A stretch of DNA of 64,000 nt from contig JAOATK010000004.1 of NCBI GenBank assembly GCA_030158115.1, forward strand, positions 29,739-93,738, read 5' to 3'. The notes under the pieces are model-generated. The model was not told the DNA's origin and ran no database searches. It saw only the letters and a list, made by a program, of their open reading frames with translations. This document shows, piece after piece, positions 13,824 through 53,458 of this stretch. Source of the DNA: Legionella sp. (GTDB lineage: Bacteria > Pseudomonadota > Gammaproteobacteria > Legionellales > Legionellaceae). The stretch's first letter is position 1; each line of letters opens with the position of its first letter. The position numbers and the translations under genes were made by a program.

Positions 13824-15776
13824 ATGAAAAAATGGAATTTAGTTAACAAAATACTTTTTGGCGCATGGGCTTTACTGACCATGACCCAGACTTATGCCGG
13901 AATACCCCTTTGGACGTTTGAGCCGCTTACTGCAACCACAATCAGTGTTACAGCAACTGGTACGGCAAACATCAAGTACCGAGTTACCAATCAATCGAAA
14001 AAATCACATACCTTGTCGATGCGACTGATACCAGGTATTACTCAAGAGACAACAGCAGGCTATTGCTCTAGTCCCTTTGTTTTGGCTTATCAGCAATCAT
14101 GCACCTTAGGCTTATCAGTGAATGGAGGTTCCTTATCAGGAAATGTGGTTGGAGGGCCCATAGTATGCCAAGGAGGCAATCCTTTGCAATGTTATCAACC
14201 AAGCCAGGCAAATAGTTTAAATATTACTAAAATTTCAAGCTTTACAGTAGGAGGTACCGTTACGGGTCTTACAGAAACGGTGACCCTGTTAAACAATAAT
14301 ACGAACTCAACTCTGATTAGCAGGGATGGCTCGTTTACTTTTTCAACTCCCATTGCGAATGGTAGCACCTATTCAGTGACGGTAGGAACCCAACCGCCAG
14401 ACCAAACCTGTACCGTATTCAATGGCACAGGCACCGTAAATGGTGCTGATGTGACCAATGTCGTAGTGACCTGCTCTACGAATGCTTACTATGTAGGAGG
14501 TACTATTTCGGGTCTTACAGGAACAGTGGTCTTGTTAAACAATGACACGAACCCCACCGCGAGAAGCACGAACGATGGTTTTATCTTTTCAATTCCGATT
14601 GCAGATGGTAGTCCTTACTCAGTGACAGTAGCAACCCAACCTGTAGATCAAACTTGTTCAGTAGCTAATGGTACTGGCATCATGAGTGGTGCTGATGTGG
14701 ATGATGTCGTAGTAACTTGCTCTGCGGATACTTACAAGGTTGGAGGTAACATTACGGGTCTTGCTCAAGGAGAAACAGTGACTTTGTTAAACAATGGCAC
14801 GGATGCTACTTTGTTTAGCGCGAACGGTGCTTTTGCCTTCCCAACTGAGATTGCAGATGGTAGCCCTTACGCGGTTACGGTGAAAACCCAACCTATAGCT
14901 CAAACGTGTACAGTAGTGAACGGCACTGGCACCATAACAGGTGGAAATGTAACCAATGTCGCAGTGACTTGCGTTACTCAGAACACAACCCTACGGGTAA
15001 GTGCTACGGGAACTATTCCTGTTAATAATGGTACTAACACGCTCACTGTAACCAATATCGGAACAACCTTTGCTGCGCTAAAAGTTCATGCCGTATTGCC
15101 TAGTGGTTGGACTACTAATGTAACACAAAATGTCGCAGATTGTGATGAAATAGCACCGGGTGATTCGTGTGGATTAGTATTTTCTTCAACCCAACCATAT
15201 GTAGCCCAAGGAAATATTACGATTACGGGGGATAACATTACCTCGCCACCAACAACAGCACTTGCATTTACTGCTACTGCTAGTAATTATTTAATTTGGA
15301 ATGTAACACCCATATCAGTAAACGTCATTGGTACGTTTAACTCGTTAACACCAGGGGCATTGCCGTGGGGGTCTTTGGCTCCACCAGCTGGGGCTACAAG
15401 TAATACGGACGGCAAAACTAATACAACTAATATTGTTACTGCGCTAGGAGTCGGCAACTATGCAGCATATTTCTGCTATAGCACTGATCCGCTAGGTTCG
15501 TGGTATTTACCTGCGATTTGTGAAATGAGCGAATCATCATATGCTGGATGTCCTACTATTAACAATATTGATACCAACTTGGTTCAGCTTGGTTTTGGCG
15601 GACTTTCGGAACCATCAACCAACATCTTCTGGAGTTCTACCGAGATGACAGGGTTTGGCGATATCAACGCATTTGATCAGACCTACATCACGGGTGGCAA
15701 GAGCACGGTGTATTATAATCTTAAGGTCGTGCCAAGATATGTTATTTGTTCTCTGAGTTTAAATCCTTTTCCTTGA
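13824..15776 (+). CDS. Secreted Lcl-like surface protein: signal peptide, Cys-containing N-domain, three ~83-aa beta-sandwich-like repeats, C-terminal DUF1566 (Lcl C-terminal) domain
   Basis: Start taken at ATG 13824 (AAGGGA SD; MKKWNLVNKILFGAWALLTMTQTYAG signal peptide). Three repeats match VGGxxTGL..TVxLLNN..(8-9 aa)..G.F.F...IA.GS.Y.VTV.TQP..QTC.V.NGTG...G..V..V.VTC. The C-terminus WYLPAICEM...IFWSSTEM resembles DUF1566. Confidence 0.8.
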   Translation: MKKWNLVNKILFGAWALLTMTQTYAGIPLWTFEPLTATTISVTATGTANIKYRVTNQSKKSHTLSMRLIPGITQETTAGYCSSPFVLAYQQSCTLGLSVNGGSLSGNVVGGPIVCQGGNPLQCYQPSQANSLNITKISSFTVGGTVTGLTETVTLLNNNTNSTLISRDGSFTFSTPIANGSTYSVTVGTQPPDQTCTVFNGTGTVNGADVTNVVVTCSTNAYYVGGTISGLTGTVVLLNNDTNPTARSTNDGFIFSIPIADGSPYSVTVATQPVDQTCSVANGTGIMSGADVDDVVVTCSADTYKVGGNITGLAQGETVTLLNNGTDATLFSANGAFAFPTEIADGSPYAVTVKTQPIAQTCTVVNGTGTITGGNVTNVAVTCVTQNTTLRVSATGTIPVNNGTNTLTVTNIGTTFAALKVHAVLPSGWTTNVTQNVADCDEIAPGDSCGLVFSSTQPYVAQGNITITGDNITSPPTTALAFTATASNYLIWNVTPISVNVIGTFNSLTPGALPWGSLAPPAGATSNTDGKTNTTNIVTALGVGNYAAYFCYSTDPLGSWYLPAICEMSESSYAGCPTINNIDTNLVQLGFGGLSEPSTNIFWSSTEMTGFGDINAFDQTYITGGKSTVYYNLKVVPRYVICSLSLNPFP

Positions 15777-17044: not shown

Positions 17045-17180
17045 TTAGATCTAACCTAATGTAAGCAACTTTCTCGTTGTATGAGTTACCTGTGTAATGA
17101 GTTTTAAACTCAGCTTATGGTGTGGTAATTTTTTGGGTTTAATTCTCTTTTTACCATCCTTCTTTGATAGGAGTTATGCT

Positions 17181-18560
17181 GTGTCAGCAGCTGTTTGGCA
17201 AAAATGTTTGGGTTTATTGCAAGATGAATATTCTGCACAACAATTTAATACGTGGTTACGTCCTTTACAGGCTCACATAGAAGAGCAGCGCTTTGTATTG
17301 TTTGCGCCGAATCGTTTTGTTGTTGATTGGGTGAAAAAGCATTTTTTCTCACGCATTGAAGAGTTAATTAAACAATTTAGTGGGGAAGATATTAAGTCAA
17401 TTTCTATTGAAATTGGCAGTAAGGCTTCTGAGTCAAGCGCCTCTTCTTCTGCTGATGTGAGTGGGGCAATGACTACTACTCATACAACAACAGAGGTTAT
17501 GATAGGAAAATCGGCTCCTAAAAAGGCAGTGGATTACAAAAGTAGCCATTTAAATAAAAAGTTTTTATTTGAAAGCTTTGTGGAAGGTAACTCGAACCAA
17601 TTGGCTCGTGCAGCCTCTATGCAGGTGGCGGAGCGTCCTGGAGATGCTTATAACCCCTTGTTTATCTATGGTGGTGTTGGTTTAGGTAAAACCCATTTAA
17701 TGCACGCCATTGGTAATGAGATTCTTAGAAATAATCCTGATGCAAAAATATTATATTTGCATTCGGAGCGTTTTGTGGCAGATATGGTTAAAGCGCTACA
17801 AACTAATTCAATTAATGAATTTAAACGTTTTTATCGTTCTCTTAATGCCTTATTAATTGATGATATTCAATTTTTTGCTGGTAAAGACCGCTCTCAGGAA
17901 GAGTTTTTTCATACGTTTAATGCATTACTTGAAGGTCAACAACAAATTATTTTAACCAGTGATCGTTATCCTAAAGAAATTGAAGGCATGGAAGAGCGAT
18001 TGAAATCTCGTTTTGGTTGGGGGCTTACTGTTGCTGTAGAGCCTCCGGAGTTAGAGACTCGCGTAGCTATTTTAATTAGTAAAGCTGAGCAATCTAACAT
18101 CGAATTACCTTATGAAGTGGCTTTTTTTATTGCCAAACGTATTCGCTCAAATGTTAGAGAACTCGAAGGCGCTTTGCGACGTGTTATTGCGAATGCTCAT
18201 TTTACAGGTAGGCCGATTACCGTTGAATTTGTTCACGAAGCCTTGCGAGATCTTTTGGCATTGCAAGACAAATTAGTCACTATAGAAAATATTCAGAAAA
18301 CTGTTGCTGAATATTATAAGGTTAAAGTGGCGGATTTATTATCCAAGCGCCGCAGTCGCTCCATTGCAAGACCAAGGCAAATGGCCATGGCCTTGAGTAA
18401 GGAATTAACGAACCATAGTTTGCCTGAAATTGGGGATCATTTTGGTGGCCGCGATCATACTACGGTTATTCACGCATGTAGGAAGGTTAAGGAGTTGGTC
18501 CAGGATGAGAGTGATTTTGCTGAAGATCATAAAAATTTGATGCGGATTTTATCTTCTTAA
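17181..18560 (+). CDS. dnaA: Chromosomal replication initiator protein DnaA
   Basis: AAA+ motifs ([23 protein letters not shown]) and a C-terminal DNA-binding domain ([21 protein letters not shown]). Start taken at GTG 17181, 7 nt after AGGAG. The track ORF adds an implausible hydrophobic extension. Confidence 0.95.
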
Positions 18561-18573
18561 TAGGGAGTCTATT

Positions 18574-19677
18574 GTGTTTGAATTCACTATAAAAAAGGAA
18601 AATTTACTAACTCCTCTTCTTACTGTTGCTGGAGCTGTTGATAAAAAACAATCTTTAGCCATTTTATCTAATTTTTTATTTAAGGTATCCGATGGGTTGT
18701 TATGCATCACGGCAACTGATTTAGAAATAGAAATTTCCGCTCAGGTTGCCTGCGAGTCAAAGCAGACTACAGGCGCTATTACAGTCCCTGCGAAAAAATT
18801 TATTGATATTATTCGTTCTTTGGATGATGAGGCTTGTCCTGCTTTTAAGGTCGATAATGGCGTTCTGACGATTAAGCAAGGGCGTAGTTCATTTAAGCTT
18901 ACCACCTTGCCAGCAAATGATTATCCTTTGAGTGAAGATGAGTGCAATGAGGTTGAATTAAATATTCCTCGTCTAGTTTTGCTCCAATTATTGCAGTCGA
19001 CTCATTTTTCAATGTCTCAGCAAGATGTACGTGTATTTCTTAATGGTTTATACCTTGATTTTGAGCCAAACCTTATTTCCGCAGTAGCTACTGATGGACA
19101 TCGAATGGCCATTAGTCGTTATCAATGCACCCATGTCAGTGATAAAAAATTACTTTTACCTAAAAAAGGTGTTCAAGAGTTAATGCGACTTCTTAATTGC
19201 ATTGATGATGAGGAAGTTTTGTTAGCGGCAGGAAAGTCACATTTTAAACTGGTCAGTAGTCAATTTGTTTTTTTATCAAAATTAATTGAGGCTCGCTTTC
19301 CCCCTTATGGAAAAGCAATTCCTCGTAATCAAGATAAACAAATTACTGTTGATTGTGCCACGTTCAAACGTTCATTATCTCGCACTGTTATCTTAGCCCA
19401 TGAGAAGTCTAAAGCGGTTATGCTGCACATGCAGCCTGGTTTGTTGACATTAATTGCTAACAATAATGAGCAAGAAGAAGCGATGGAGTCCCTAGTGGTT
19501 GACACGGTGGGCGACGAGCTAAAAATCGGACTTAATGCCACTTATTTGCTCGATGTGCTCTCTCATTTTGGAGAAGGACAAATTCGCTTATCCTTATCTA
19601 ACACAGACAGCAGTATTCTAATTGAGTCATTAGAAAATGATCAGTACCAGTATATAATTATGCCTATGAAGATATGA
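18574..19677 (+). CDS. dnaN: DNA polymerase III beta sliding clamp
   Basis: 367 aa with typical beta-clamp sequence, in canonical position after dnaA. The start is GTG. Confidence 0.95.
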   Translation: MFEFTIKKENLLTPLLTVAGAVDKKQSLAILSNFLFKVSDGLLCITATDLEIEISAQVACESKQTTGAITVPAKKFIDIIRSLDDEACPAFKVDNGVLTIKQGRSSFKLTTLPANDYPLSEDECNEVELNIPRLVLLQLLQSTHFSMSQQDVRVFLNGLYLDFEPNLISAVATDGHRMAISRYQCTHVSDKKLLLPKKGVQELMRLLNCIDDEEVLLAAGKSHFKLVSSQFVFLSKLIEARFPPYGKAIPRNQDKQITVDCATFKRSLSRTVILAHEKSKAVMLHMQPGLLTLIANNNEQEEAMESLVVDTVGDELKIGLNATYLLDVLSHFGEGQIRLSLSNTDSSILIESLENDQYQYIIMPMKI

Positions 19678-20738
19678 TTCTTACCCAATTAAAAATTCAT
19701 AATTTGCGTAATGTTTTATCAGCGCACTTGATACTCAATACTAAGTTTAATTTTATTTTTGGGGCTAACGGAAGTGGAAAAACTTCCGTTCTTGAAGCCC
19801 TCTATCTGCTTAGCTGTGGCCATTCTTTTCGTTCTCGCGAAATTTCTCCGATTATTAATCATGAACAATCCTCCTTTACTGTTTTTGCACGTGGTGCTGA
19901 GCAAGAAACAATAAGTATACAAAAATCCGCTTTTAACGCGACGCAAATCAAGCTTAATAATCAGTTTTGTTCCACTACAAGTCAATTAGCTTATGCACTA
20001 CCTTGCCAAATTTTTTACTCAGATATTTTTCAAATCATTGACGCTGGTGCTGCTGTACGGAGAAGTGTTTTAGATTGGGGATTGTTTCACGTGAAACCTA
20101 ATTATCTTCTTTTATTAAAAGAATATAGAAAAATACTAAAACAACGCAATGCCTTATTAAAAAAACATGCTCCTTATGCACACTTTGTCCCTTGGGATAA
20201 ACAGCTTAGTGAATTGGCAGAACAATTACATCTGCTAAGAACTAATTATTTCATGCAATGGGAGAAAGAGTTTTTAAAAGTATTGTCACAGTTAAGCGAT
20301 CTTGACTGTACCATTAGTTATTATAAAGGCTGGGATAAAAAAAATAGCGGGAAAAATTTAGAGCAAGTACTTATTGATAGTTTTGAAAGTGATAATCATA
20401 AATTATACACGCAATACGGAGCGCATCAGGCAGATATTATTATTGAAAGCAATTCCAATAAAGCCAAGCAGTTTTTATCTCGTGGACAGCAAAAAATAAT
20501 TTTAATGGCTTTAAAATTATCTCAGTCTAATCTCTTGAGTCAAGATTGCTTGTATCTTATTGATGATTTACCCGCAGAGCTTGATGAGTTGCACCAAAAG
20601 AAATTATTAATTTATTTATCCGGGATGAAAGGACAATATGTTATTACAACTAATGCAAATCCTGATAATTTGAGTGCGTATTGTTCAGCCCCGGATTATA
20701 CAACGCATCAAATCATTAATGGTCAACTCAGTAACTAA
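19674..20738 (+). CDS. recF: DNA replication/repair protein RecF
   Basis: Walker A GANGSGKTSVLEA and an ABC-like signature SRGQQK. It overlaps the dnaN stop by 4 nt. Confidence 0.95.
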   Translation: MILTQLKIHNLRNVLSAHLILNTKFNFIFGANGSGKTSVLEALYLLSCGHSFRSREISPIINHEQSSFTVFARGAEQETISIQKSAFNATQIKLNNQFCSTTSQLAYALPCQIFYSDIFQIIDAGAAVRRSVLDWGLFHVKPNYLLLLKEYRKILKQRNALLKKHAPYAHFVPWDKQLSELAEQLHLLRTNYFMQWEKEFLKVLSQLSDLDCTISYYKGWDKKNSGKNLEQVLIDSFESDNHKLYTQYGAHQADIIIESNSNKAKQFLSRGQQKIILMALKLSQSNLLSQDCLYLIDDLPAELDELHQKKLLIYLSGMKGQYVITTNANPDNLSAYCSAPDYTTHQIINGQLSN

Positions 20739-20763
20739 TCTAAATCGTATTAAAAGAATTACT

Positions 20764-20951
20764 TAGCCTGGTTGCCTGTAACTAACGATGCTTACTTAAG
20801 GGCTTTACGCTCTTGTAGCCTGGATGCAGCGCAGCGTAATCCGGGAATTCGGTGCCACTGATCCCGGATTGCGCTGCGCTGCATCCAGGCTACAAGGGTA
20901 TAGACGATTACTAAAACTCATTAAGTAAGCGTCATCAGTGCAAGCAACCAG
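20764..20951. repeat. Outer REP-like element (family-1-like ends TAGCCTGGTTGC...GCAAGCAACCAG, imperfect arms) hosting a nested element
   Basis: The left arm TAGCCTGGTTGCCTGTAACTAACGATGCTTACTTAAG pairs imperfectly with CTTAAGTAAGCGTCATCAGTGCAAGCAACCAG-type sequence on the right. Element 20815-20893 sits in its centre. Confidence 0.7.
20815..20893. repeat. Family-2 REP-like element nested inside the 20764-20951 element
   Basis: GTAGCCTGGATGCAGCGCAGCGTAATCCGGGA ... TCCCGGATTGCGCTGCGCTGCATCCAGGCTAC: 32-bp arms with one mismatch. Confidence 0.9.
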
Positions 20952-20999
20952 TTTCTATTATTTTTTTTCATTTGTGTTGAAGCTGTTATAGGTGCTCTC

Positions 21000-21025
21000 T
21001 AATATGTTTCACGTGAAACATATTA
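21000..21025. promoter_or_regulatory. Perfect 26-bp palindrome TAATATGTTTCACGTGAAACATATTA about 100 bp upstream of gyrB (candidate operator)
   Basis: Verified by eye as self-complementary. Its 14-bp core GTTTCACGTGAAAC recurs at 20084-20097 inside recF. Confidence 0.5.
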
Positions 21026-21114
21026 ACCCCCTATTCTTCTCCAATTGAACATGTAAACCCTATGTAAAATATGCTATGATAGGGTCAATTTTAAAATGCA
21101 GTAATCGAGTTTAA

Positions 21115-23544
<2,430 letters not shown>

Positions 23545-23744: not shown

Positions 23745-24200
23745 ATGGACGCATTTGCCGATGTGCCACAAGATGTATTAAGTGCTATTTCTCACGCTCC
23801 TGTTTTTTCTGGGATAGGTCTTGTTGAGCAAAAAATGCTTGCAGAAAAAAGTGTGGTGACACAATGTGGCGCTGAAGAAATTATTATTGAGCAAGGCGAG
23901 GTTGGAGATAAGCTTTATATTATTATGAAAGGCCAGATGCTGGTTTCTGTAAAAACCTTATCCATGGGTTGGAAAAAGGTGAATGTTTTAGGGCCTGGTG
24001 ATGTGGTTGGGGAAATTGCTGTTTTAAGACGAATCCCAAGAACCGCACGTGTCAGCACACTCACCGCTTGTAAATACCTTACTATAAGCGCAGAAGATTT
24101 TCTTCACGTATATCAATATTTTTCTGCCAATGCGCGTGATAACATTCAATTGGTAATGGCAAAACGGTTACAAGAATTGGGTGTATTTATTAAAATCTGA
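23745..24200 (+). CDS. Cyclic-nucleotide-binding (CAP effector) domain protein, 151 aa
   Basis: cNMP-binding pattern GDKLYIIMKGQ...GPGDVVGEIAVLRRIPRTARV. Confidence 0.75.
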   Translation: MDAFADVPQDVLSAISHAPVFSGIGLVEQKMLAEKSVVTQCGAEEIIIEQGEVGDKLYIIMKGQMLVSVKTLSMGWKKVNVLGPGDVVGEIAVLRRIPRTARVSTLTACKYLTISAEDFLHVYQYFSANARDNIQLVMAKRLQELGVFIKI

Positions 24201-30823: not shown

Positions 30824-30840
30824 TTGATAAGCAATCGCTG

Positions 30841-30868
30841 ATTGGCACTTATGTTTGTAAGTGCCAAT
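30841..30868 (+). terminator. Intrinsic terminator after the spy-like gene
   Basis: ATTGGCACTTA-6 nt-TAAGTGCCAAT followed by CTATTTTATT. Confidence 0.7.
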
Positions 30869-30893
30869 CTATTTTATTAGTTAGAATCCACGG

Positions 30894-33290
30894 CTATTGT
30901 TCTAGGCTTAACCAGTCATTTATTTGTTTTTTAGTTTCGTTAATCACGATGAACAACTGTTGATATAATAGTTCGGGTAACTGACGGCATACTTCTTTAG
31001 AGTAATGCTCAATGTACTGACAAAGGTGAACTAGTTGGGTTGCACCGCAGTAGATAAAGCTACTTTTCATGCGATGTATTACTTTGCCAATGGTACTCCA
31101 ATCATCGAGCATATAAGCTTTTTCAAGCTCAGATATATCGATAGGAATTTCTTTTTCTATGATGGACGCTAAAATATCTTTTAGTAAATTAATATCACCA
31201 CCTATACCTACCAGAGCATATTGCGCATCAAAGACAGGACTTTTTTCTAGTTTCAATAATTCTTCACGAAGCTCAGATAATTCTTGTGTTTGCTGGGCTA
31301 AGTTTGCTTCATGTTCGGAGGCAGCATGTGCTTGGGTGGGGTCAAAATAAATCTCTTTGATTTTCATCAAAATATCGAGCGTCATCGGTTTAGTAAAGAC
31401 TTTATCCATTCCAGATTCAAGGCAGCTTTTCTTTATTTTTTCTTCTGAATGAGCGGTTAATCCAATAATAGGAATGGGTCTTTTTCGTTCTTCTTTTTCT
31501 AAGGTGCGAATTCTAGAGGTTAACTCAATTCCAGATAAATCAGGCAAGCCTAAATCAGTAATAATCAAATCAAATGATTCGCTTTGTGATAAATGAAGAG
31601 CAGACTCTCCATCCATCACACTGATAAACTTCAATCCTGCTTGCGATATTAGATTTTCAAGAGTAAAAAGAGCTACTTTATTGTCTTCTACTAGTAGTAA
31701 TTTGGGCTCTTTTTTATTGGAAGTAGATATTTTTAATGAATTAGTAGGGTTTATTGTATTTAATCCATCAGATTTGGATGGCGTGCTTTTAAGTTGGCTG
31801 TCATCAATTTTCAATGCTAGGGTAAAACAAAAAGTAGTGCCTATCCCTTGTTTGCTGGTAAATGAAATCTTTCCACCTAATAAATCAGCATATGACTTTG
31901 CGATATGTAAGCCAATACCATGGCCGGTGTAAGTCCCTTTGTGTGAGGGAGTACCGCGATAAAACCTATCGAATACTTTATCCTGCAATTCGGTTGAAAT
32001 ACCAATACCTGTGTCTTTAATGCGAAACTGTACTACCATATCCGTTTCATCTTGTCCTAAAAGTAGGACATTAATCTCAACTTGGCCTACTTGAGTAAAT
32101 TTAATAGCATTACCTAATAAATTTAATAAAATACGATGAATTTTAGTGGCGTCACTGATAAGAGAAGAGGGGATGTTTTCGTCTACATAAGTGACCAACT
32201 GAAGTCCTTTAATTAATGTAGAAGGGCGTTCAAGTTGCACAATATCTTGAATCACTTGGTGTAAATTAAATGCTTCTTCATGCACGTCAGAGTCATGCAC
32301 GTTATCAGCTGATACTACATCCAAAATCCCATTGAGCATATGTAATAATTGCTTTCCACTTTCGTTAAGCCAATGCGCATATTGTTTTTGATTAGGATCT
32401 TGAAGACTTTCTTCTAGCATTTTAGACATCCCTACCACTCCGGTTAAAGGCGTGCGGATGTCATGGCTCATATTAGCAATGAATTCAGTTTTTGCATGGC
32501 TAGCTGCCTCAGCCGCTTCCTTTGCTTTGTTTAATTCGGTTTGCGCATTTTTTAGTTCGGTAATGTCTAAAGAGTTACCTAAAATACCGATAATGTTCCC
32601 TTCGTCGTCTAAAAGTGGCATTTTAATGACTGTAAAAAACCTAATTTTTCCACTCAGAGTCACGGTTTCTTCAAAAAAAACAGGGTTTTTTTCTCTGATG
32701 ACCATCTCGTCATTCTTTTTCAACTCCTCTGCGTGAGCAGGCCAAAGATCTAAGTCAGTTTTACCCACCAATTCATGGAGTGATTTGAAACCTAAGGTTT
32801 GTAGAAGGGTTTGATTACATCCTAAATATTGCTCTTCTTTGTTTTTCCAATAAAAGTTACCGGGAACACAAAGGGATATTTTTTTAATTTGATCAAAAAT
32901 AGTGATGTTTTGTAAGGCTAATCTTTTTTTATCGGTTTTATCATTTCCTAAAATAATTATTACCGACTGCTCCGGCTGGCTTATAAATTTCCAGTTAACA
33001 TAGCGTTTTGATTTATTGCGATACATTATTTGACTGAAGTTAAAGTCTTTTCCACGGCTCAGTGCTTTGAATTTTTCAAATGGAAAGGGTACGTTATCCG
33101 GGTATTCTTGATAAATAGACTCAAGAGATTTTCCCAATATTTCATGCTCTTTCCAGCGTAAAAGAGATTTAGCGCTTTCGTTAAAATCAATAATACAGTA
33201 ATGAGTATCAAGGACTATGATGTAGTCTTCTGATAAGAGAAGTAACGTTTTTAATTGCGGATGCAGTAAGTCTACGGAGTTTTTTTTCAT
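30894..33290 (-). CDS. Soluble hybrid sensor histidine kinase (PAS-PAS-HisKA-HATPase-REC-HPt)
   Basis: H-box [14 protein letters not shown]-box [13 protein letters not shown]-boxes DTGIGIS and [12 protein letters not shown] domain (LLLVEDN...ITDLGLPD...KPM) and HPt ([12 protein letters not shown]). No TM segment is seen. Confidence 0.9.
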
Positions 33291-33297
33291 AGTAGGC

Positions 33298-36200
33298 CTA
33301 CCAAATATTAGTCCGGTTTAAAAACCCTGTTTGCTCTAAATAAGTAAAATAGGTATTTAATAGCGGTTCGTTTATTAGAGGAAATTTCATTTTATTTTCT
33401 TTAAACGCATGCAATGTATTTTGGTTATTTGCATCCGATATTTTTAAATTATTCATCCAATCATTATCATTTTTATTAATATATAAAGTAAGCAATGAAT
33501 ACAGCGCATTATTGGGGGCAATTTCTTTTGAAAGAATATTCTTCCATTGCTTTGGAGAGCATAAGGACAGGTGATATCCTCTCTTGCTAAGATAAGTCAT
33601 TAAATCATTCCATGCAAGTTTATTTGGATTAATTAAATTAAAAATATTGTAGGGTATTTTTTTATTTAACGATGTTTTTACAATCAATTGACTGATCTGA
33701 TCGACCGGAAAAATATCCAGAGAAACATTCCAATCCGGTGCGAATCCTAATTGCAAGCAGCTTTTAATAAGCAGCAATAAATGATTTTTTTCTGCATTAA
33801 TAATGCCTGAAGTGGAATGACCTAAAATCCAGCCAGGGCGATATATTTTAATGGGTAATTGTTGTTGATGTGCTTTTGCAAGAAGCTGTTCTGCTACCCA
33901 TTTTGTCTGACTATACCCATCTTCAGGTGGCGCATTGGGATGTGAGTAAATAAAATCCTCAATAATGGTATTAAAGTTATCAGTATAATTTTTTGCAGCA
34001 GATAGTGACGACACATAATGGATAGGGATTTTTCTTTTAATCGTTGCCAGTTTTAATAATTCTTTAATACTAAGTACATTGGCTGCGCGTAATTGTTCAT
34101 AGCTATAGAGATGATGAACTATCGCGCCATTGTGATAAATGATATCTATGGTTTCTGCAAGTTCCATAAATTTCTCTATAGTTAAACCCAGATAACTTTT
34201 TTCTAAATCGCCGGCTAAGAGTTTGATACGATGAGACTCTTTGAATGGCGATCCAGCATGCTGCATTTTGTGATTTATATCCTCAGAATTTTCTCCCCTG
34301 ATAAGGCAATAAATCGTGGCAGTTGTTAAATGATAGAGTTGGTAGAGAAGGTTTGAGCCTAAAAAGCCATTCGCTCCCGTTAATAAAACCGCGTTGGGCA
34401 TTGAATGGAGAGATTGACGTTTTTGAGGCAAAGTAAGAAGATTTAGTTCAGTGTCAAATTGCCAATGGGATAAAGTGGATGCTTCCGATTGGCGATTCGT
34501 ATCAATAAGTCTCGCTAAGTGTGAAATCGTGGGATTTTCAAGAAAATGTTGAAGGGGTAAATTAAAACAAAGTTGCTCTTTAATTTTTAAAATCAATTGG
34601 GTAATCATCAGGGAATGCCCCCCGAGATCAAAAAAAGAATCATGAATTCCAATTTGAGCCATCTTAAATAAATCACACCATATTTTCTCTATATTTTTTT
34701 CAGTCTGGGAATGGGGTGCAATATAATCGGTCCGTAAAAAATGAGAAGAAAAATTAGGAGGAGGTAATTTTTCAAAATTAACTTTGCCATTTAAGGTGAG
34801 TGGAATTTTATCTATCTTAATAAAAAAAGCAGGAATCATATAGTTTGGTAAATGAGCCTCCATATAGCGCTGAATATCAATGGTTGGCGTATTATCGTTG
34901 AGAATAATATAAGCCACAATTAATTTTTGCAGGCGTTCATTTTCAACGATATTAACGGCGCATTGGTTAATGGACTCGTGACGCAGCAAAATCATATAAA
35001 TGGCGTCGAGCTCCACACGAAAACCGCGAATTTTTATTTGATGATCTTCACGCCCTAAATAATCAATCGTTCCATCCGGCATCCATCGGGCTATATCACC
35101 TGTTTTATACAGCAGTCCTAAATTATCATTATAAAGATTAGGAATAAAACGTGAGGACGTACTTTGGGGATGATTTAAATAGCCCAAGGCAACCCCATCG
35201 CCTCCTGTATATAATTCACCAGGTGCTCCGATAGGTAGAGGTTGTAAAAATTTATCGAGAATATAAACCGTTGTGTTGGAAATAGGTGTTCCAATAGGAA
35301 TAGATTGATATCCTTCTTCCTTTGCTTTAATTTCATAAACGGTAGTAAATGTTGTATTTTCGGTGGGCCCATATCCATTCAAAATAAACTGAGGAGCCCC
35401 TTCCTTACAATGCAGCACATTCATGATGTGCTCAGAGTTTAAAACATCACCACCCACCAATAAATAAGTCAGTTTGCGAAACATGGCAGGATTTAGTGAG
35501 GCATATTCATTAAATAGAGCTGAGGTTAACCAGAGAATACTGATCTGTTCTTCAATAAGAAAGTGACTTAACTCCGTGATGTTGAGCAATACGGAGTGAG
35601 GAATTGGTACAAGCATTGCTCCATTTAACAAGGCTCCCCAAATTTCAAAAGTTGCTGCATCAAAACCAATGCTGGCTGCGTGGGCGATACGATCATGGGG
35701 GCTGATTTTTATGTAGTTGGTTTCTTTAACTAAGCGACTAATTCCTCGGTGAGGAATCATAACACCCTTAGGTTTGCCTGTAGTTCCCGAGGTATACATA
35801 ATATAAGCTAAATCATCAGGCTTTGCGCTTTCAAAATGAGCGACTGGTCCGCTCGCTGTCTCTCGCATTAAAGCATCTAGAGTTAATAGTGGTATTTGTT
35901 GATTTTCACAACAAATTTGAATTTTATGTTGGATTGATTCAGAAGTTAGTGCCAAGACAGCGTGGCTATCATTCAGAATAAATTGAATGTGGTTTGAAGG
36001 GTAATTTGTATCTATAGGAATATAAGCGGCACCGGATTTTAAAATAGCTAACAACCCAATAATCAACGCTATTTTTTCATCGGTAAATAACGCAATATGA
36101 GCCCCTGAAATGGCTCCATTTTGCTGTAATTGATAAGCTATGTGATTGGATTTTTGATGCAATTCTTGATAAGTCAGAGCGGTGCTTGCATAAGATAACG

Positions 36201-37980
36201 CTATTTTTTTAGGATTTTTTTTGACTTGTTCTAAAAAGAGAAGTATGACATTGGAGCTGCCTCGATAAGCTGTTTGGGTCTGGTTCCAAGTAATAAGTAA
36301 TTGTGCTCTTTCATGCTGAGAAAGCAGGGGGATTTTTAAAATAGGCTGTGTTGGATGAGTGAGCATTGCTTGAATCAAAATAGGCAAATGCTGGACACTA
36401 TTTTGAATAATACTAAGGAGCATGGTATTTTTTTCACGGCAATACCAATGTATTTTATACGTATTATCAATGCTAATGATGATAGGTGATTTGAGTGTAT
36501 GAATTTGTTTTGCTAATTCTTTCTCATTTCCAAGAATCACAGCAATTGGATAAGAGGACTCTAAAATAGGCGTCAACTCCGGATAACGGTGATAAATATC
36601 ATTGGCAAAAGTGATGTGCTTATCAATTAATGTCAGCTGATTAAAAAAAAGAATCAAAAATTCTTCTACAGTGAGCCCTTCTTCCAAAGTTAGAGAAAAA
36701 GGGACTATTTTAGAAAATAATGGTGCTATTTTTTCGGGTAATTGATGTAATTTAGGATGGGAAAATCCTAATCCCACGTGCTCTTTATTGCCTAAACGAT
36801 AAAGATAAATAAATAAAGCCGCAAGAATAAAATAACTAGGATTGTCAGTATAGTCATTATGAAAAGTTTGCAAAATAGGCATAGCATCACAGTATGCAAT
36901 AGGATTTAACACGGTATTGTTTGTACAGACTTGCCCTGGCGATTGAAAAGGGAGCATTGCGGGGTTAAATTCACTTGCTTGTTTAACCCAAAATAACTCA
37001 TGTATCGCATACATTTCGGCAATCCGTTCATATTGCAGTAAAGTGATTACTGCCTCTGAAGGAAGGCAACAGCCAACAGTTAATTCATAATGGGTTGCAA
37101 TGTCATCTAATTCACGATAATTAGTATTAATAGGCGTCACTTGCTCTAATTGCAGTATTTGATTTCGAGTAGCGATGTGCCAATAATCTGGGGTAATTTT
37201 TACAAGCGTACCAGGTGGTTCAGAGCTTGACTCACTAATTGCACGGGCCTGTGAGATAAGAAAAAAATCATTTCCTATATGGAATTTAGGGAGCCCTAAG
37301 CGATTACGATAATGATGTCCTAAATTAAGTGCGTGGCATAATCTACCTATCGTTTCTGCTGCCTCATGCCAATTGATCCAACCTCCATGACGCGGTTTTT
37401 TATAGTAATCAAAATAGGTGCGATTCTTTAAATTTTGAGCGACAGGGACTACTTGGTTCAGTGTGATGTCATAAATTAATTCTTTAAACGTTTTAAGGGC
37501 TTCCTGATAACATTTAACACTCAAACTTAAGCCGGTTTCATCTGGTTCTATTTGAATCTGGGCTTGTTTTAAAATATCTCCAGCATCAATCTCTTCAACC
37601 ATGGTGTGCCAGGTTACGCCATGAACGACTTCTTTGTTTAAAATAGCCCAAGAAGGCGCGTGCAAACCTGCATATTTAGGTAAGAGGCTATTATGATAAT
37701 TAATAGATAATTTGTTTGCTTTTTGTAGTAATGAAATAGGTAGTGTTATGCCATTTACAATACTGAAAAAATAATCAAATGGAGTAGCTGATAACACAGG
37801 ATAGGCATCACTAAGCTTTTTAAAATAGGGTATTTTTTTTGTGGCTGCAAAATGTTCGGCATTGGGTAGCGGTGAGATAATACCCAAGATTAAATGATTA
37901 TAAGATAAAATAATTTCAGCGCATTCTAAAACTAACTGATCATCTCCTATTAAATAACAATTAAATAATTGTTTTTTCAA
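33298..37980 (-). CDS. Single-module NRPS-like synthetase: formyltransferase (F) - partial condensation-like region - adenylation (A) - thiolation (T) - thioester reductase (R)
   Basis: F: HNSLLPKYAGLHAPSWAI...DAGDIL (aa ~95-136). A: LAYIMYTSGTTGKPKGV, GELYTGGDGVALGYL, YKTGDIARW, LNGKVNFEKL. T: FFDLGGHSLMITQL. R: VLLTGANGFLGSNLL...YSQTKWVAE. Residues ~300-560 resemble the C-terminal half of a C domain without HHxxxDG. Confidence 0.9.
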   Translation of the reverse strand: MKKQLFNCYLIGDDQLVLECAEIILSYNHLILGIISPLPNAEHFAATKKIPYFKKLSDAYPVLSATPFDYFFSIVNGITLPISLLQKANKLSINYHNSLLPKYAGLHAPSWAILNKEVVHGVTWHTMVEEIDAGDILKQAQIQIEPDETGLSLSVKCYQEALKTFKELIYDITLNQVVPVAQNLKNRTYFDYYKKPRHGGWINWHEAAETIGRLCHALNLGHHYRNRLGLPKFHIGNDFFLISQARAISESSSEPPGTLVKITPDYWHIATRNQILQLEQVTPINTNYRELDDIATHYELTVGCCLPSEAVITLLQYERIAEMYAIHELFWVKQASEFNPAMLPFQSPGQVCTNNTVLNPIAYCDAMPILQTFHNDYTDNPSYFILAALFIYLYRLGNKEHVGLGFSHPKLHQLPEKIAPLFSKIVPFSLTLEEGLTVEEFLILFFNQLTLIDKHITFANDIYHRYPELTPILESSYPIAVILGNEKELAKQIHTLKSPIIISIDNTYKIHWYCREKNTMLLSIIQNSVQHLPILIQAMLTHPTQPILKIPLLSQHERAQLLITWNQTQTAYRGSSNVILLFLEQVKKNPKKIALSYASTALTYQELHQKSNHIAYQLQQNGAISGAHIALFTDEKIALIIGLLAILKSGAAYIPIDTNYPSNHIQFILNDSHAVLALTSESIQHKIQICCENQQIPLLTLDALMRETASGPVAHFESAKPDDLAYIMYTSGTTGKPKGVMIPHRGISRLVKETNYIKISPHDRIAHAASIGFDAATFEIWGALLNGAMLVPIPHSVLLNITELSHFLIEEQISILWLTSALFNEYASLNPAMFRKLTYLLVGGDVLNSEHIMNVLHCKEGAPQFILNGYGPTENTTFTTVYEIKAKEEGYQSIPIGTPISNTTVYILDKFLQPLPIGAPGELYTGGDGVALGYLNHPQSTSSRFIPNLYNDNLGLLYKTGDIARWMPDGTIDYLGREDHQIKIRGFRVELDAIYMILLRHESINQCAVNIVENERLQKLIVAYIILNDNTPTIDIQRYMEAHLPNYMIPAFFIKIDKIPLTLNGKVNFEKLPPPNFSSHFLRTDYIAPHSQTEKNIEKIWCDLFKMAQIGIHDSFFDLGGHSLMITQLILKIKEQLCFNLPLQHFLENPTISHLARLIDTNRQSEASTLSHWQFDTELNLLTLPQKRQSLHSMPNAVLLTGANGFLGSNLLYQLYHLTTATIYCLIRGENSEDINHKMQHAGSPFKESHRIKLLAGDLEKSYLGLTIEKFMELAETIDIIYHNGAIVHHLYSYEQLRAANVLSIKELLKLATIKRKIPIHYVSSLSAAKNYTDNFNTIIEDFIYSHPNAPPEDGYSQTKWVAEQLLAKAHQQQLPIKIYRPGWILGHSTSGIINAEKNHLLLLIKSCLQLGFAPDWNVSLDIFPVDQISQLIVKTSLNKKIPYNIFNLINPNKLAWNDLMTYLSKRGYHLSLCSPKQWKNILSKEIAPNNALYSLLTLYINKNDNDWMNNLKISDANNQNTLHAFKENKMKFPLINEPLLNTYFTYLEQTGFLNRTNIW

Positions 37981-38158
37981 AAAAGAGCTCCCTGAAGTTT
38001 ATTAATCTAATATGACTCAAAGTATTATACTCTACATGCCGAAAATTAACACTTATTGAATCTTTTAAATCATTTTTCATTGGGGATTGGTGGAAAGCTT
38101 CTATCCTGAGGCTGTTCGAGATAAAATGGGCTTCATCCCCACTCTCCATGATAAATTT

Positions 38159-47069: not shown

Positions 47070-48320
47070 TTAATGAGGTTGCAATTGCGTTGCTGAAGAA
47101 GACTGCTGGTGGTTTGGAGGGGTTCCTCCATACATTCCAAGAGTTGCAAGTAATGGGGCATAGGGAGGGGGCGATTGTGTTGTAGGCAGTTGTTTAAGTA
47201 TAGTTTGTAACTCTTCTATTTGTGACCTATGAGTTTCAAGGAGGCTTTCATAGTGGGTGTTGTTTGCGGCAAGTAATTTTTGGGTTACCTCAAGTTGTTT
47301 TTTAGTTTGACATATACTAGTGAAAATCTCAGCCGTAGATTCTTTATTTTGGAGAAGCTGTTGCATGGATTCATTAAATCGCGCTCTTTCCCCTTCATTG
47401 TTAATGACAAGAGAGCTCATTCCTGCAGTAACCTCCCCTAATACAGTAGTTAGTTTTCCTGCCTCTTCTAAGCTTTCTTGTAGTTGTGCTTGTTTGTTGG
47501 CAAGCACAATAGATTGCTCCTCTAATTTTATTACAGCTTCTTTATAAGCTTGCATGGTTTGCTCTTGTGCTTTTTCGCTTGCTGTAAGTAAGGCGGTTAG
47601 TTTGGTTGTTTCAATTTCTAGCTCACTGGAGGTGCTTTCTAAATTATTTTTAATGAGTTGTAATTCACAAACTAAAGTTGCAGTGGCATCAAGCTCTATG
47701 GCTAATTGTTTATTTTGTTCCTTGAATGCTTCACTGCTCTTTTGCAGCGTCATATTTTCCTCAGAAAATTTATTTACTTCTGCGGCTAACTGTTCGCGTA
47801 TGGAATCAAGCGCGGTAATGGTTAGTTCTAAAAGATCTGCCAATCCAAAAACGCCTTGTTCTAAATGTTCAGTCGCATTAGTTTGGCACTTTTGATGATT
47901 ATGAAATAGGATCGTAGCTCCTGTGTAAATAATTGCTGTGACGCCGCAGATAGCTAGTAAAAACCATAGATGGAATACAATACCCAAGGTTAATGTAGGG
48001 ATAGTAATGGCAATTCCAATCAGAATTTTTTTCCACAGAGCAAACTGCCCCCAAAATTTCGAAGCTCGGGATAGGTAACTGGGATTTTGTTCCATGCTGG
48101 CAATAGTATCATGCAATGCATCTTTGATTTTTTTGAATATTTCTTTTGTAATGACTATTTTTTGTATGCTGGCTTTATCGCCAGTTTGAGCCTCGTTTAA
48201 TAAAGCTTTAATCTCAGCTTCTGTAGTCAAAGGGGTTTTAGGGGCTTCTTGAGAATGAATATTGTTTTCGGGTTGAATAGTATCTGGTTCTTGTGGTAAG
48301 TCATTTTCATTGATAGCCAT
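47070..48320 (-). CDS. Hypothetical coiled-coil protein with a central TM hairpin (effector / inclusion-membrane-like)
   Basis: Two adjacent hydrophobic helices (aa ~110-160 of the track ORF) are followed by about 230 aa of heptad-like E/Q/L-rich sequence. Start taken at ATG 48320 (SD AAGGAA). Confidence 0.6.
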   Translation of the reverse strand: MAINENDLPQEPDTIQPENNIHSQEAPKTPLTTEAEIKALLNEAQTGDKASIQKIVITKEIFKKIKDALHDTIASMEQNPSYLSRASKFWGQFALWKKILIGIAITIPTLTLGIVFHLWFLLAICGVTAIIYTGATILFHNHQKCQTNATEHLEQGVFGLADLLELTITALDSIREQLAAEVNKFSEENMTLQKSSEAFKEQNKQLAIELDATATLVCELQLIKNNLESTSSELEIETTKLTALLTASEKAQEQTMQAYKEAVIKLEEQSIVLANKQAQLQESLEEAGKLTTVLGEVTAGMSSLVINNEGERARFNESMQQLLQNKESTAEIFTSICQTKKQLEVTQKLLAANNTHYESLLETHRSQIEELQTILKQLPTTQSPPPYAPLLATLGMYGGTPPNHQQSSSATQLQPH

Positions 48321-48578
48321 GCTCATTTCCTTGTGATTAAGAATTTCCCTTAGGCTCTTATTTTTAATCAAAATTACCTGGATGACAAGAGTTAATTTAG
48401 CAATGAATTCAAGGCGTTATTTATTTTATGGGCGATAAGTTTAAAAAATAATCATCGGTCTTCTGTTTATTAGAAGAGTATTTTGAGACATGTATTTTAA
48501 AAAATGATATTCTGTGCCGCTGAGATTCTCTCATTTTTTGATTAATTCCCCCGATTTTAAGAAAGGAAGATGTGCTCT

Positions 48579-51521: not shown

Positions 51522-52220
51522 CTACATCAATGGCAAAAAACTGCTGGCCAAACAGTCTTTTAATTTTTTCAAAGTCTGTGGATTTTGTGTTATGGCCTGA
51601 TTAGACTCAACTTCAATCCCTACATAGGCATCAGGAGCGTATTTCTTACGTAGGCTAGTGACTAGGCCATCACTGATCCCTTTGTAGGGATAATTCATTC
51701 TGACTCGATAATCCTTGGTTTGTTTTTTAATTTCTAACATCCATTCTTTGGCCAAGGTTTTTTCTAAAGTCCTACGTGGATCATAAAGCAAACCAATGTC
51801 TGCATTGCGCACTTTGTTATCCATTATAGGGGTGAAACTGTGAATGGAAAGGTGTATGACTCGGGCGCCTTCTCGTTGGTGTTTTTCGATATGATCCATA
51901 ACACTTTGGCGGTAGGGTAAATAATATTGCGTGATAATTTCTTGTTTTTGTTGCTCAGGCAGTGGGTGAGTAACTTCTGAAAATAAACGCTTATGATTTA
52001 TACTACGATTGCATTCAATGAACATTCTTGAGGTGGATGCCAAAATTAAATCACAGGGCAATACTTCTTTAAAATGTAAGGCGATCTCCAAAGCGCCAAA
52101 ATCTATTCCCCTGTGCGATTCCAGAAGATTTTTAAAGGGCTGGAATAACATTTGATAGGCAGGAGGAATGGCATTTGTGCCATGTTCACAACTGATTACG
52201 AGGGCAGTTTTTTTGCTCAT
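51522..52220 (-). CDS. N-formylglutamate amidohydrolase-family (FGase, PF05013-like) protein
   Basis: LVISCEHGTNAIPPAY N-terminal motif and ...HLSIHSFTP. It overlaps the upstream gene by 4 nt. Confidence 0.75.
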   Translation of the reverse strand: MSKKTALVISCEHGTNAIPPAYQMLFQPFKNLLESHRGIDFGALEIALHFKEVLPCDLILASTSRMFIECNRSINHKRLFSEVTHPLPEQQKQEIITQYYLPYRQSVMDHIEKHQREGARVIHLSIHSFTPIMDNKVRNADIGLLYDPRRTLEKTLAKEWMLEIKKQTKDYRVRMNYPYKGISDGLVTSLRKKYAPDAYVGIEVESNQAITQNPQTLKKLKDCLASSFLPLM

Positions 52221-53458
52221 GATTGAAAGCCTTGGTTAGAAAGTAAACAAAATTGAAGTTGGGCGTACACTCTTTTTAAAGACTCTAGATTAATATCTTT
52301 TCCAACCGCTTGGAGTATCCGCTCACTTAAATTACCTAAAGATAAGATTTGTTCTAAAGCCAGTTGTTCTTGTAACTCAAGCGCAGTACTGTTTTTTTCA
52401 ATCAGTTGCGACCAGATATCGCGCAATGTTTTTAAATGGGTTGGTAGTTGCCATTGAATAAATAGTTTGGGGTCATCTACTGGAGTAGATAATCCGCTTT
52501 TGATGGACTGATCAAAAAGATTTTTCAGGCGTTTTGTTTCACAAGGATTTTCTAAATAATACGAAGAGGTTTCGCACCAATTTTTTAATACAGCATTGAT
52601 AATTTTCGCAATAGCAAGATCCGCAGTCACACATTCTTGGCTATCTAAGATACGAATTTCAATCGCTTTATGGGCAAATTTTGGAATAGAGGCGCGTGAG
52701 TTTAACCAGGAATGTTGCAATATGCCCATGGGATCTAAAGCGCTAATGTCTTGATACATGGGGTTTAGGATTTTTTCTTGGTATTCCTTTTCTGTTTTAA
52801 TAAATTCAGGAATAATCTCCCCGCTTATCGAAGGAATACGTTTTTGATTTTCACTGTAAAAATACAGGCGCGAATCTAATAAGCCAGTCGGTTTTCCATC
52901 AAGAATAGGAGTGCTTGCGGCAAGAGCAGGAAGCAGAGGCAGTATTAACCTGATGCTATTATGTAGCTGACAAAATTCCTCATCGTTAGCATAGGGTAAA
53001 TTGACATGCATACTTTGTAAATTAGACCAGCCATGACCTTTGCAGTCAAAAATGGTGTCATATTGTTGGTATATTTCATTATTCCCATGTGGCCAGCGTA
53101 CAGTTTCTGTATGAGGATTCATCCAAGGGTGTGCACCTGATGGCATTAACAAGAGATGGTGTTCTGCGAGGAGTGGTTGAATGTCCAAAATGGTTTTTTG
53201 AAATTGTTCTACAATAGGTGCTGAGGGTGGTTTAGGCCCGTTGGTTTTTAACTCCAGTACGTGCATAACTAATTCATTGCTGATCGCAATATCACCCAAG
53301 GCTACTTCTTCAACTTGCTCTCCTGCTAATGCTTTAAGAATAAGATCGCTTTTGGGCTGGATATTGAGATGTTCTTTATCTACTAGCATGTACTCTATCT
53401 CAATACCAAGCACAGAAAAAATAGGGAAATTAAACATACCCATGTTTCCTACGTACAC
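52217..53458 (-). CDS. Glutamate-cysteine-ligase family 2 (GCS2 / carboxylate-amine ligase-like) protein
   Basis: GIEIEYMLVD start of the GCS2 fold and the internal HVNLPY. The true start is possibly ATG 53437-53443. Confidence 0.7.
   Translation of the reverse strand: MYVGNMGMFNFPIFSVLGIEIEYMLVDKEHLNIQPKSDLILKALAGEQVEEVALGDIAISNELVMHVLELKTNGPKPPSAPIVEQFQKTILDIQPLLAEHHLLLMPSGAHPWMNPHTETVRWPHGNNEIYQQYDTIFDCKGHGWSNLQSMHVNLPYANDEEFCQLHNSIRLILPLLPALAASTPILDGKPTGLLDSRLYFYSENQKRIPSISGEIIPEFIKTEKEYQEKILNPMYQDISALDPMGILQHSWLNSRASIPKFAHKAIEIRILDSQECVTADLAIAKIINAVLKNWCETSSYYLENPCETKRLKNLFDQSIKSGLSTPVDDPKLFIQWQLPTHLKTLRDIWSQLIEKNSTALELQEQLALEQILSLGNLSERILQAVGKDINLESLKRVYAQLQFCLLSNQGFQS

Follow-up and report, generated by a model that had tools for sequence, protein, structure and literature searches.

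Introduction

Small-molecule signaling systems such as CqsA/CqsS and LqsA/LqsS have a synthase gene that lies beside the gene of a sensor kinase, and their output runs to a regulator that is encoded elsewhere or does not bind DNA. The LqsA/LqsS pair is found in Legionella, a bacterium that switches between replicative and transmissive states. To our knowledge, Lqs is the only small-molecule signaling system known in this genus. Here, we analyze a two-gene locus from Legionella sp. that lies in a stretch of 64,000 nt (GenBank assembly GCA_030158115.1, contig JAOATK010000004.1, positions 29,739-93,738 of the forward strand), which we call the window throughout. The locus consists of two neighboring minus-strand open reading frames (ORFs), one for a single-module nonribosomal peptide synthetase (NRPS) and one for a soluble hybrid histidine kinase. 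The synthetase has a formyltransferase (F) domain, a remnant of a condensation (C) domain, an adenylation (A) domain, a carrier domain (T, or peptidyl carrier protein, PCP) and a terminal thioester reductase (R) domain, and we refer to this type as F-A-T-R. A first-pass annotation of the window had proposed that the two genes form a signal synthase/sensor pair. Its direct observations on coordinates, motifs and domains hold in every detail, and its interpretation is partly supported by the analysis described here.

Enzymes of this kind have been noted before. By genome mining, Tobias et al. (2016, PeerJ 4:e2720, PMC5126622) predicted for Legionella a "cluster C", a monomodular NRPS with formylation and terminal reduction, whose product would be an N-formyl amino aldehyde, an alcohol or an oxazoline. 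Their clusters B-D adjoin a regulator gene that was read as a "transcriptional regulator", and signaling compounds were suggested; the words kinase, sensor and quorum are absent from that article (PMC5126622). The locus in the window answers to the description of cluster C in its architecture, its Legionella relatives and the adjacent receiver-bearing kinase. Our search of the literature on Legionella NRPS formylation, kinase or aldehyde, on N-formyl-valinol and on N-formyl-valinal found no experimental characterization later than this 2016 study.

Pairing of the synthetase with a PAS_4 kinase

Fourteen unfused F-A-T-R loci were examined, namely the window, L081, L083, L085-L090, L077, L094, L096, L155 and the pair P0033/P0121. 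In every one of them (14/14) a histidine kinase with a PAS_4 domain directly adjoins the NRPS gene. The kinase gene lies downstream on the same strand in 13 loci and is divergently transcribed in the remaining one, L094. Most of the pairs are separated by a short spacer or overlap; in L088 the gap measures about 200 nt. The genes that flank the NRPS-kinase unit differ in almost every locus, and therefore the two genes travel as a unit. Twenty further pairs of NRPS and kinase homologs were found on contigs of identical size in the two protein searches, many of these contigs being 8-20 kb long.

The control set was made up of metagenome formyl-NRPS genes without an R domain, which end in a thioesterase (TE) domain or continue into further modules. 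They were drawn from a metagenome scan with an F-domain alignment, and 22 of them had enough downstream sequence. A PAS_4 kinase adjoins only 1/22 of these genes, compared with 14/14 of the R-terminated ones (Fisher p = 4e-9). The exception is L097 (9746-20249), where a two-module F-(C-lobe)-A-T-C-A-T-TE enzyme is followed by a kinase; its PAS_4 domain was detected by the model built in this study, but Pfam PAS_4 gives no match.

In three divergent relatives, P0045, P0049 and P0050 (2213-2346 aa), the F-A-T-R enzyme, two PAS_4 domains and the kinase are joined in one polypeptide, in which the R domain directly precedes the PAS_4 domains. For one of these fusions, inspection of the contig confirmed a single gene. 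C-A-T-R synthetases, the "cluster D" of Tobias et al., carry a starter condensation domain in place of F and likewise precede PAS_4 hybrid kinases, for example in L. quateirensis (L064, 8825-15191), and in L077 (5493-17159) a C-A-T-R and an F-A-T-R gene stand in tandem before one kinase. The F-A-T-R type retains half a C domain and may be derived from a C-A-T-R ancestor. L064 and L077 were the only useful results of a profile scan of genome contigs, in which the full-length family alignment caught generic motifs (NGYGPTE, FFxLGGHS) and otherwise led to NRPSs of other kinds.

A DNA-binding response regulator is found in none of the 14 cassettes, and no exporter is conserved with them. Individual loci have further neighbors: a short-chain dehydrogenase in L094 (9492-10214), an iron alcohol dehydrogenase in L089 (6479-7660), and in L086 (7038-7790 and 14351-14728) both a phosphopantetheinyl transferase and a stand-alone receiver. 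These would fit the chemistry or the relay, and none is conserved across loci.

Taken together, the comparison strongly supports that synthetase and PAS_4 kinase form a conserved pair, that this pairing is specific to the R-terminated enzymes and that it has been fixed as a fusion more than once. A functional coupling of the two proteins is supported about as well as comparative genomics allows. The first-pass annotation had named synteny in relatives as one test of its proposal, and with adjacency throughout, three fusions and a single case among the controls the outcome is strongly favorable to it.

Co-variation of the PAS_4 domain and the synthetase

The output parts of the partner kinases vary. 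They range from a full His-Asp-His (H-D-H) relay to a plain PAS-HisKA-HATPase protein; in one system the receiver is separate, and the transmitter of the fusions is of another type. Constant in the partner kinases is one PAS_4 domain of striking conservation, which in an alignment of 20 domains reads PGNFYWK...YLGCN...GKTDxDLWP...EE...GNSLDIT. When pairwise identities were compared across 16 loci, PAS_4 identity followed NRPS identity closely (r = 0.85), also with the kinase core held constant (partial r = 0.81, Mantel p = 0.0002), whereas the kinase core followed the NRPS weakly (r = 0.52, partial r = 0.33). The window and L. maioricensis (L087) share 71% identity in the kinase core, 50% in the PAS_4 domain and 35% in the NRPS, and their A-domain codes are of Val and Phe type, respectively. 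With L096 the window shares 39% in the core, 61% in PAS_4 and 43% in the NRPS, and both codes are of aliphatic type. The likeness of the core in the window and L087, despite distant PAS_4 domains and synthetases, suggests recombination that swapped a sensor-plus-synthetase unit onto a conserved transmitter. These comparisons strongly support a joint evolution of PAS_4 domain and synthetase.

The same correspondence appears when the amino acid specificity of the synthetases is considered. We aligned 78 family members, that is the NRPS of the window and 77 F-A-T-R relatives of 32-72% identity, which come mostly from Legionella/Legionellaceae assemblies and of which three are kinase-fused. The A-domain code DAFWLGGTFK is present in 42/78 and the Phe-type code DAWT[VI]AAVCK in 11/78; the remaining codes comprise several other aliphatic variants, a DTA[IMV]IGE[IV]WK type without an assigned amino acid, and Thr-like and Ser-like codes. 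Aliphatic codes go with the PAS_4 motifs NFYWK / YLGCN / DLWP, Phe codes with [NS]IYWK, DTA-type codes (three loci) with AIY[WY]K / YL[GA]CS / [DE]LF[SP], and Thr-like codes with YxGAN. PAS motif classes that follow A-code classes are the pattern that a ligand-receptor relationship would predict. A metagenome-assembled genome with the locus-tag prefix CK424 holds a Val-type cassette, a Phe-type cassette and a C-A-T-R gene. For L077, a code DAWIVGAVCK that came out of a small alignment was discarded as an artefact, since direct inspection gives DAWTIAAVCK. A protein search by word index, with the sensor region of 263 aa as query, returned 12 proteins only and missed known orthologs, and it is unusable for judging the specificity of the PAS_4 type.

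Domains of the synthetase and its predicted product

The Fmt-like, complete adenylation, PCP and terminal reductase domains named in the first-pass annotation each find support in Pfam and NCBIfam (Table 1), and its motifs are present at aa 96 (HNSLLPKY), 132 (DAGDIL), 1120 (GGHSL), 1201 (TGANGFLGS) and 1356 (YSQTK). Domain searches could have failed on F and R in particular; both came out well above the respective cut-off, with 62.7 bits against 26.1 for Formyl_trans_N (Pfam) and 278.9 bits against 213.35 for TIGR01746. For the A domain, TIGR01733 scores 384.9 bits against a cut-off of 317.4, AMP-binding_C is matched as well, and K1066, the equivalent of Lys517, is invariant. In all 78 aligned enzymes N94/H96/D132 of the F domain, the carrier Ser1123, and T1201/G1202/G1205/G1208 and Y1356/K1360 of the R domain are invariant. 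It is therefore strongly supported, as far as conserved residues can tell, that the NRPS holds every residue needed for amino acid activation, loading of Ser1123, N-formylation from formyl-tetrahydrofolate and reductive release with NAD(P)H. Among PDB entries, the F domain matches the ArnA formyltransferase best (2.5e-17) and Fmt too, and the F domain of LgrA at about 4e-6. By these matches it is closer to the ArnA/Fmt formyltransferases than to the F domain of LgrA. An F-A initiation module of LgrA type is not what we find, given the weak LgrA match and the C-lobe of about 300 aa that separates F from A.

The first-pass annotation had likened this segment to the C-terminal half of a C domain, and three lines of evidence agree with that reading. 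A profile of aa 286-590, built on 21 members of the family, finds PDB entries of C domains, best McyB (7e-22), and aligns with C-domain residues ~189-486. An AlphaFold model of the remnant (pLDDT 86.5, pTM 0.82) retrieves in Foldseek exclusively NRPS C domains as top matches, at 4e-10 and weaker. In the TE-terminated homologs L105 and L120, positions 191-456 of Pfam Condensation are matched at 3.8e-12. The motif HHxxxDG is not seen in the NRPS translation, and a functional C domain with both lobes and this motif is not present. The formyltransferase has replaced the N-terminal lobe that bears HHxxxDG.

The specificity code of the A domain could be read in all ten positions as DAFWLGGTFK, a valine-type code. 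The code columns were checked by alignment: PA1221, the best PDB match of the segment and a Val-activating enzyme, differs at one position, and the same columns applied to SrfA-C return its known code. The A domain is therefore predicted to activate valine, and the product is predicted to be N-formyl-valinal (two-electron release), N-formyl-valinol (four-electron release) or possibly a derived oxazoline; the sequence cannot tell aldehyde from alcohol release. An N-formyl amino aldehyde or alcohol made from one amino acid is what the first-pass annotation had predicted, and the code refines this to valine.

The kinase partner

The kinase was described at first as a protein without transmembrane segment that has two PAS domains, a receiver and an HPt domain, and this description stands. 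The four Pfam domains of a tripartite hybrid kinase (HisKA, HATPase_c, receiver and HPt) are all above cut-off, and H276, D579 and H739 lie within the respective motifs. No transmembrane segment was found in the kinase, where the maximum 19-residue Kyte-Doolittle mean is 1.44. A soluble kinase with a complete H-D-H phosphorelay is thus strongly supported by domain content and hydropathy. The nearest solved structure to the PAS_4 domain is the cytoplasmic PAS domain of BvgS (6zj8, 3.8e-8). The N-terminal PAS_9 domain gives a weak PDB match to the PAS domain of a diguanylate cyclase (0.0018). ArcB is the top-scoring named family for the kinase, far under the cut-off (315.7 vs 838), and other equivalog cut-offs are not reached either (TorS 312.6 vs 676.5, BarA 296 vs 890, LuxQ 268 vs 1200, LetS 224.8 vs 1650). 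In the protein collection, P0133 is 100% identical to the kinase of the window, and the NRPS search there gave nothing above 72% identity. The NRPS of the genome from which the window comes seems to be absent from that collection or to be called differently in it.

Operon layout and genomic surroundings

Co-transcription of the two genes had been put forward on account of their short distance, and the details of the locus support it. Direct reading of the junction confirms the GGTAGG at the synthetase 3' end, a Shine-Dalgarno-like sequence that straddles the NRPS stop codon, and places the kinase ATG exactly 7 nt beyond this stop. No terminator was predicted at the junction by a terminator scan, and the spacer is too short to hold one. 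Past the kinase stop and ahead of the convergent gene for an LTXXQ protein lies a hairpin whose stem measures 13 bp, likely the operon terminator. Upstream of the TTG start of the NRPS, a TATAAT forms the -10 element of a putative operon promoter, a call that comes from consensus and conservation matching only: the block AAGTGTTAATTTTCGGCAyrTAGAGTATAATAC and the TTG start are kept in L081, the 72%-identical closest relative, and the Shine-Dalgarno sequence AGGGAG likewise falls within conserved sequence. The promoter consensus scan itself gave 23 sites vs 31.4 in shuffled sequence and was given no weight because it finds fewer sites than in shuffled sequence; the call rests on the conservation in L081.

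Table 1. Features of the synthetase-kinase locus, in window coordinates
Feature	Position	Strand	Evidence and remarks
Putative promoter: -10 TATAAT 38024-38029, Shine-Dalgarno AGGGAG 37988-37993, upstream of TTG	37988..38029	-	Consensus match, conservation
Single-module NRPS gene, F / C-lobe remnant / A / T (PCP) / R	33298..37980	-	1560 aa, TTG start; ORF, Pfam, NCBIfam
Formyltransferase (F) domain, N- and C-terminal subdomains, aa 1-285; N94/H96/D132	37126..37980	-	Formyl_trans_N 4.9e-17, Formyl_trans_C 1e-4
Condensation-domain remnant, C-terminal lobe and C-A linker, aa 286-580	36241..37125	-	Family profile, AlphaFold model, Foldseek
Adenylation domain, aa 583-1066, code DAFWLGGTFK	34783..36234	-	AMP-binding 8.5e-76, TIGR01733
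Carrier (T/PCP) domain, aa 1097-1159, Ser1123 in GGHSL	34504..34692	-	PP-binding 8.5e-13
Terminal thioester reductase (R), aa 1198-1554; TGxxGxxG 1201-1208, Y1356/K1360	33319..34389	-	NAD_binding_4 2.9e-56, TIGR01746
Gene junction: GGTAGG 33297-33302, NRPS stop TAG 33298-33300, 7-nt spacer 33291-33297, kinase ATG 33288-33290	33291..33302	-	Direct sequence reading
Soluble hybrid histidine kinase gene	30894..33290	-	798 aa; ORF and Pfam domains
N-terminal divergent PAS domain, aa 23-96	33003..33224	-	PAS_9 1.4e-9
PAS_4 sensor domain, aa 141-248 (PGNFYWK...YLGCN...GKTDxDLWP)	32547..32870	-	PAS_4 6.5e-21 (Pfam match aa 144-247)
Transmitter core: HisKA aa 266-329 (H276) and HATPase_c aa 380-494	31809..32495	-	Pfam 3.8e-18, 1.5e-25
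Receiver aa 532-643 (D579) and HPt aa 712-773 (H739)	30972..31697	-	Pfam 1.7e-22, 1.9e-8
Hairpin, 13-bp stem, kinase stop to convergent LTXXQ gene (likely terminator)	30840..30869	.	Terminator scan and sequence

Around the operon lie cydAB and the genes for the LTXXQ protein, COQ7, PagP, a Mpo1-like protein and RlmL. dnaA, dnaN, recF and gyrB stand in a row at 17097-23544 and the cumulative GC-skew has its minimum near 12-14 kb; the window therefore spans the region of the chromosomal replication origin, and the NRPS-kinase operon is located ~13 kb from dnaA. Just downstream of gyrB (23745-24200) a small protein of 151 aa with a cyclic-nucleotide-binding domain is encoded. Three adjacent minus-strand genes at 51522-54884, for an N-formylglutamate amidohydrolase-like protein, a glutamate-cysteine ligase of family 2 and a RimK-like ATP-grasp protein with a RLAN domain, look like a small peptide-ligase cluster. 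The ORFs 13701-15776 (691 aa), 47070-48371 (433 aa) and 60398-63424 (1008 aa) have no Pfam match at 1e-5 and could encode lineage-specific secreted proteins.

Possible functions of the pair

We favor the explanation that one operon encodes a small-molecule synthase together with its cognate cytoplasmic sensor, and that the product is sensed directly by the PAS_4 domain; judged on sequence comparison, we give it an even chance. The pair is a strong candidate for a new system of chemical signaling. The NRPS would activate valine, load it onto Ser1123, N-formylate it from formyl-tetrahydrofolate and release it by reduction with NAD(P)H. The small neutral product would then bind the PAS_4 domain and alter autophosphorylation at H276, and the signal would pass via D579 and H739 to a response regulator encoded elsewhere. 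Different clades would use different amino acids with matched PAS variants. Such a product might be an intercellular autoinducer, or it might serve as an intracellular read-out of the supply of amino acid, one-carbon units and NAD(P)H, and the fusions fit the intracellular option at least as well.

Several observations weigh against direct sensing by the PAS_4 domain. The co-variation of PAS_4 and NRPS could reflect shared ancestry and joint recombination, since the PAS-coding region lies close to the NRPS gene, and the locus pairs that enter the correlation are not phylogenetically independent. The match of PAS motif classes with A-code classes is confounded in the same way. PAS_4 domains 44-49% identical to that of the window occur in kinases without a nearby NRPS, in L091 after ftsZ and in L092 among shikimate genes, and GGDEF and sigma-54 proteins carry the same domain as well. 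A domain of this type is hence not reserved for this ligand. Among the surveyed genes of the window there is no response regulator, exporter or phosphopantetheinyl transferase. Furthermore, we know of no small-molecule ligand established for the cytoplasmic PAS domain of BvgS.

The main rival to direct PAS_4 sensing would make the kinase a regulator of the pathway that senses some other cue (redox/quinone, host, nutrient). Its phosphorelay would control the operon, and the product would be exported as an effector; an aldehyde that reacts with proteases would be one example, a formylated ligand directed at the amoeba or macrophage host another. We consider this unlikely, but it has to be weighed seriously. 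Two-component genes beside biosynthetic genes are commonly regulators, which counts in its favor, and redox or quinone sensing has been proposed for PAS domains of the BvgS/ArcB type. BvgS provides the nearest solved PAS domain, ArcB is the top named family of the kinase, though far under its cut-off, and the PAS_4 subfamily operates elsewhere without an NRPS. Tobias et al. call the neighbor a "transcriptional regulator" (PMC5126622). However, 0/14 cassettes contain a DNA-binding response regulator; the flanking genes are unrelated and no exporter is conserved. A regulator that responds to another cue also leaves unexplained why the PAS_4 domain tracks NRPS identity and A-code much closer than the kinase core does, and it does not account for the fusion of synthetase and kinase in three divergent lineages.

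These fusions, where R directly precedes PAS_4, speak for a physical coupling without a freely diffusing signal, in which the PAS-kinase would regulate the synthetase directly or the synthetase would modify the kinase, for instance by an aldehyde thiohemiacetal on the Cys of YLGCN. We judge this improbable. The Cys is present in 17/20 partner PAS_4 domains, but it is also found in BvgS and in NRPS-unlinked PAS_4 kinases and is hence a feature of the subfamily, and the two PAS domains of L094 have Ala in its place. For these reasons the Cys was dropped as a mark of an aldehyde-reactive sensor. Most systems are moreover unfused, and one is divergently transcribed. Adjacency without function, be it chance, a hitch-hiking neighbor or a decaying NRPS, is effectively refuted by the contrast between R-terminated and control loci, the fusions and differing flanks, catalytic residues intact in 78/78 enzymes and an ORF uninterrupted over 4.7 kb in the window.

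Returning to a product sensed by the PAS_4 domain, the locus may belong to a whole signaling family in the Legionellales. Its one-module F-A-T-R or C-A-T-R enzymes would make amino aldehydes or alcohols with an N-formyl or N-acyl group, and the BvgS-type cytoplasmic PAS_4 domain of a partner or fused kinase would read these directly; the amino acid variants would be "dialects" matched by their sensors, and a genome such as CK424 would run several orthogonal channels. We put this forward tentatively and with some doubt. If true, Legionella would possess, next to Lqs, a signal that is made by an NRPS and received by a soluble PAS protein; N-formyl amino aldehydes or alcohols would constitute a new chemical class of bacterial signals, and the widespread BvgS-type cytoplasmic PAS domain would have its first defined ligand. 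With the synthase-receptor fusions and the dialects, natural material would be at hand for testing the evolution of signal specificity. The hypothesis is directly testable because only two genes are involved and the product is simple, ~130 Da and synthesizable.

Comparison with known systems

The first-pass annotation had likened the locus, for its coupling of synthase and kinase and not for its chemistry, to CqsA/CqsS and LqsA/LqsS. The resemblance is one of gene layout only: CqsA and LqsA are pyridoxal phosphate-dependent makers of alpha-hydroxyketones and their sensors are multi-pass membrane kinases, whereas the window encodes an NRPS and a soluble PAS kinase without transmembrane segment. 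The locus is hence not a member of these families. A precedent for the sensing step is VqmA of Vibrio, in which a cytoplasmic PAS domain receives DPO, a small, membrane-permeant signal derived from an amino acid; VqmA is a PAS-helix-turn-helix transcription factor. A kinship of its PAS domain with the PAS_4 domain of the window was considered and found not significant (E ~0.09). With kinases of the BvgS, ArcB and TorS type the kinase shares the HisKA-HATPase-REC-HPt phosphorelay, but those sit in the membrane and sense with periplasmic or transmembrane parts, while the kinase of the window is soluble.

On the side of the synthetase, LgrA starts the NRPS line of linear gramicidin with a formyl-tetrahydrofolate-dependent F domain that formylates carrier-bound valine. 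The F domains are related in sequence. However, LgrA (F-A-PCP) continues into a multi-module line, whereas the NRPS of the window ends in R and keeps the Fmt C-terminal subdomain and half a C domain. PvfC (A-T-R), of the Pseudomonas virulence factor (pvf) pathway, and AusA-type enzymes are one- or two-module NRPSs whose terminal R domain releases amino aldehydes, and the pvf product acts as a signal. In contrast to the F-A-T-R enzymes they have no F domain, and for this reason their amino aldehydes remain free and can condense to pyrazines, pyrazinones or imidazoles, a reaction that N-formylation in the window enzyme would block. The pvf operon moreover contains an N-oxygenase and has no dedicated adjacent kinase.

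The sole characterized enzyme with the domain order of the window NRPS is a mollusc Fmt-A-T-R NRPS from the bursatellin/oxazinin pathway, which yields N-formyl-tyrosinol (J Am Chem Soc 2025, PMC11869996). Its T-R portion reduces thioesters to tyrosinols and thereby provides a precedent for four-electron release (PMC11869996). The mollusc enzyme differs in being encoded by an animal gene with introns, in its Tyr-activating A domain, in place of which the window has a valine-type code, and in having no kinase partner. Its gene sits in a tailoring cluster (aminocarboxypropyl transferase, P450, flavin monooxygenases) that makes a toxin-like metabolite.

The nearest relative by description is cluster C itself, with which the locus shares the Legionella host, the architecture of formylation, A, T and terminal reductase, and the predicted class of product. 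The enzyme class, the product class and the idea of signaling are accordingly already known as predictions. What that account does not contain is the universal pairing, the fused forms, the remnant C-lobe, the diversity of A-codes and the co-variation of PAS and NRPS. The new result is the strength of the link to the kinase, that is an obligate and sometimes fused PAS_4 kinase partner, together with the amino acid variants of its synthetase.

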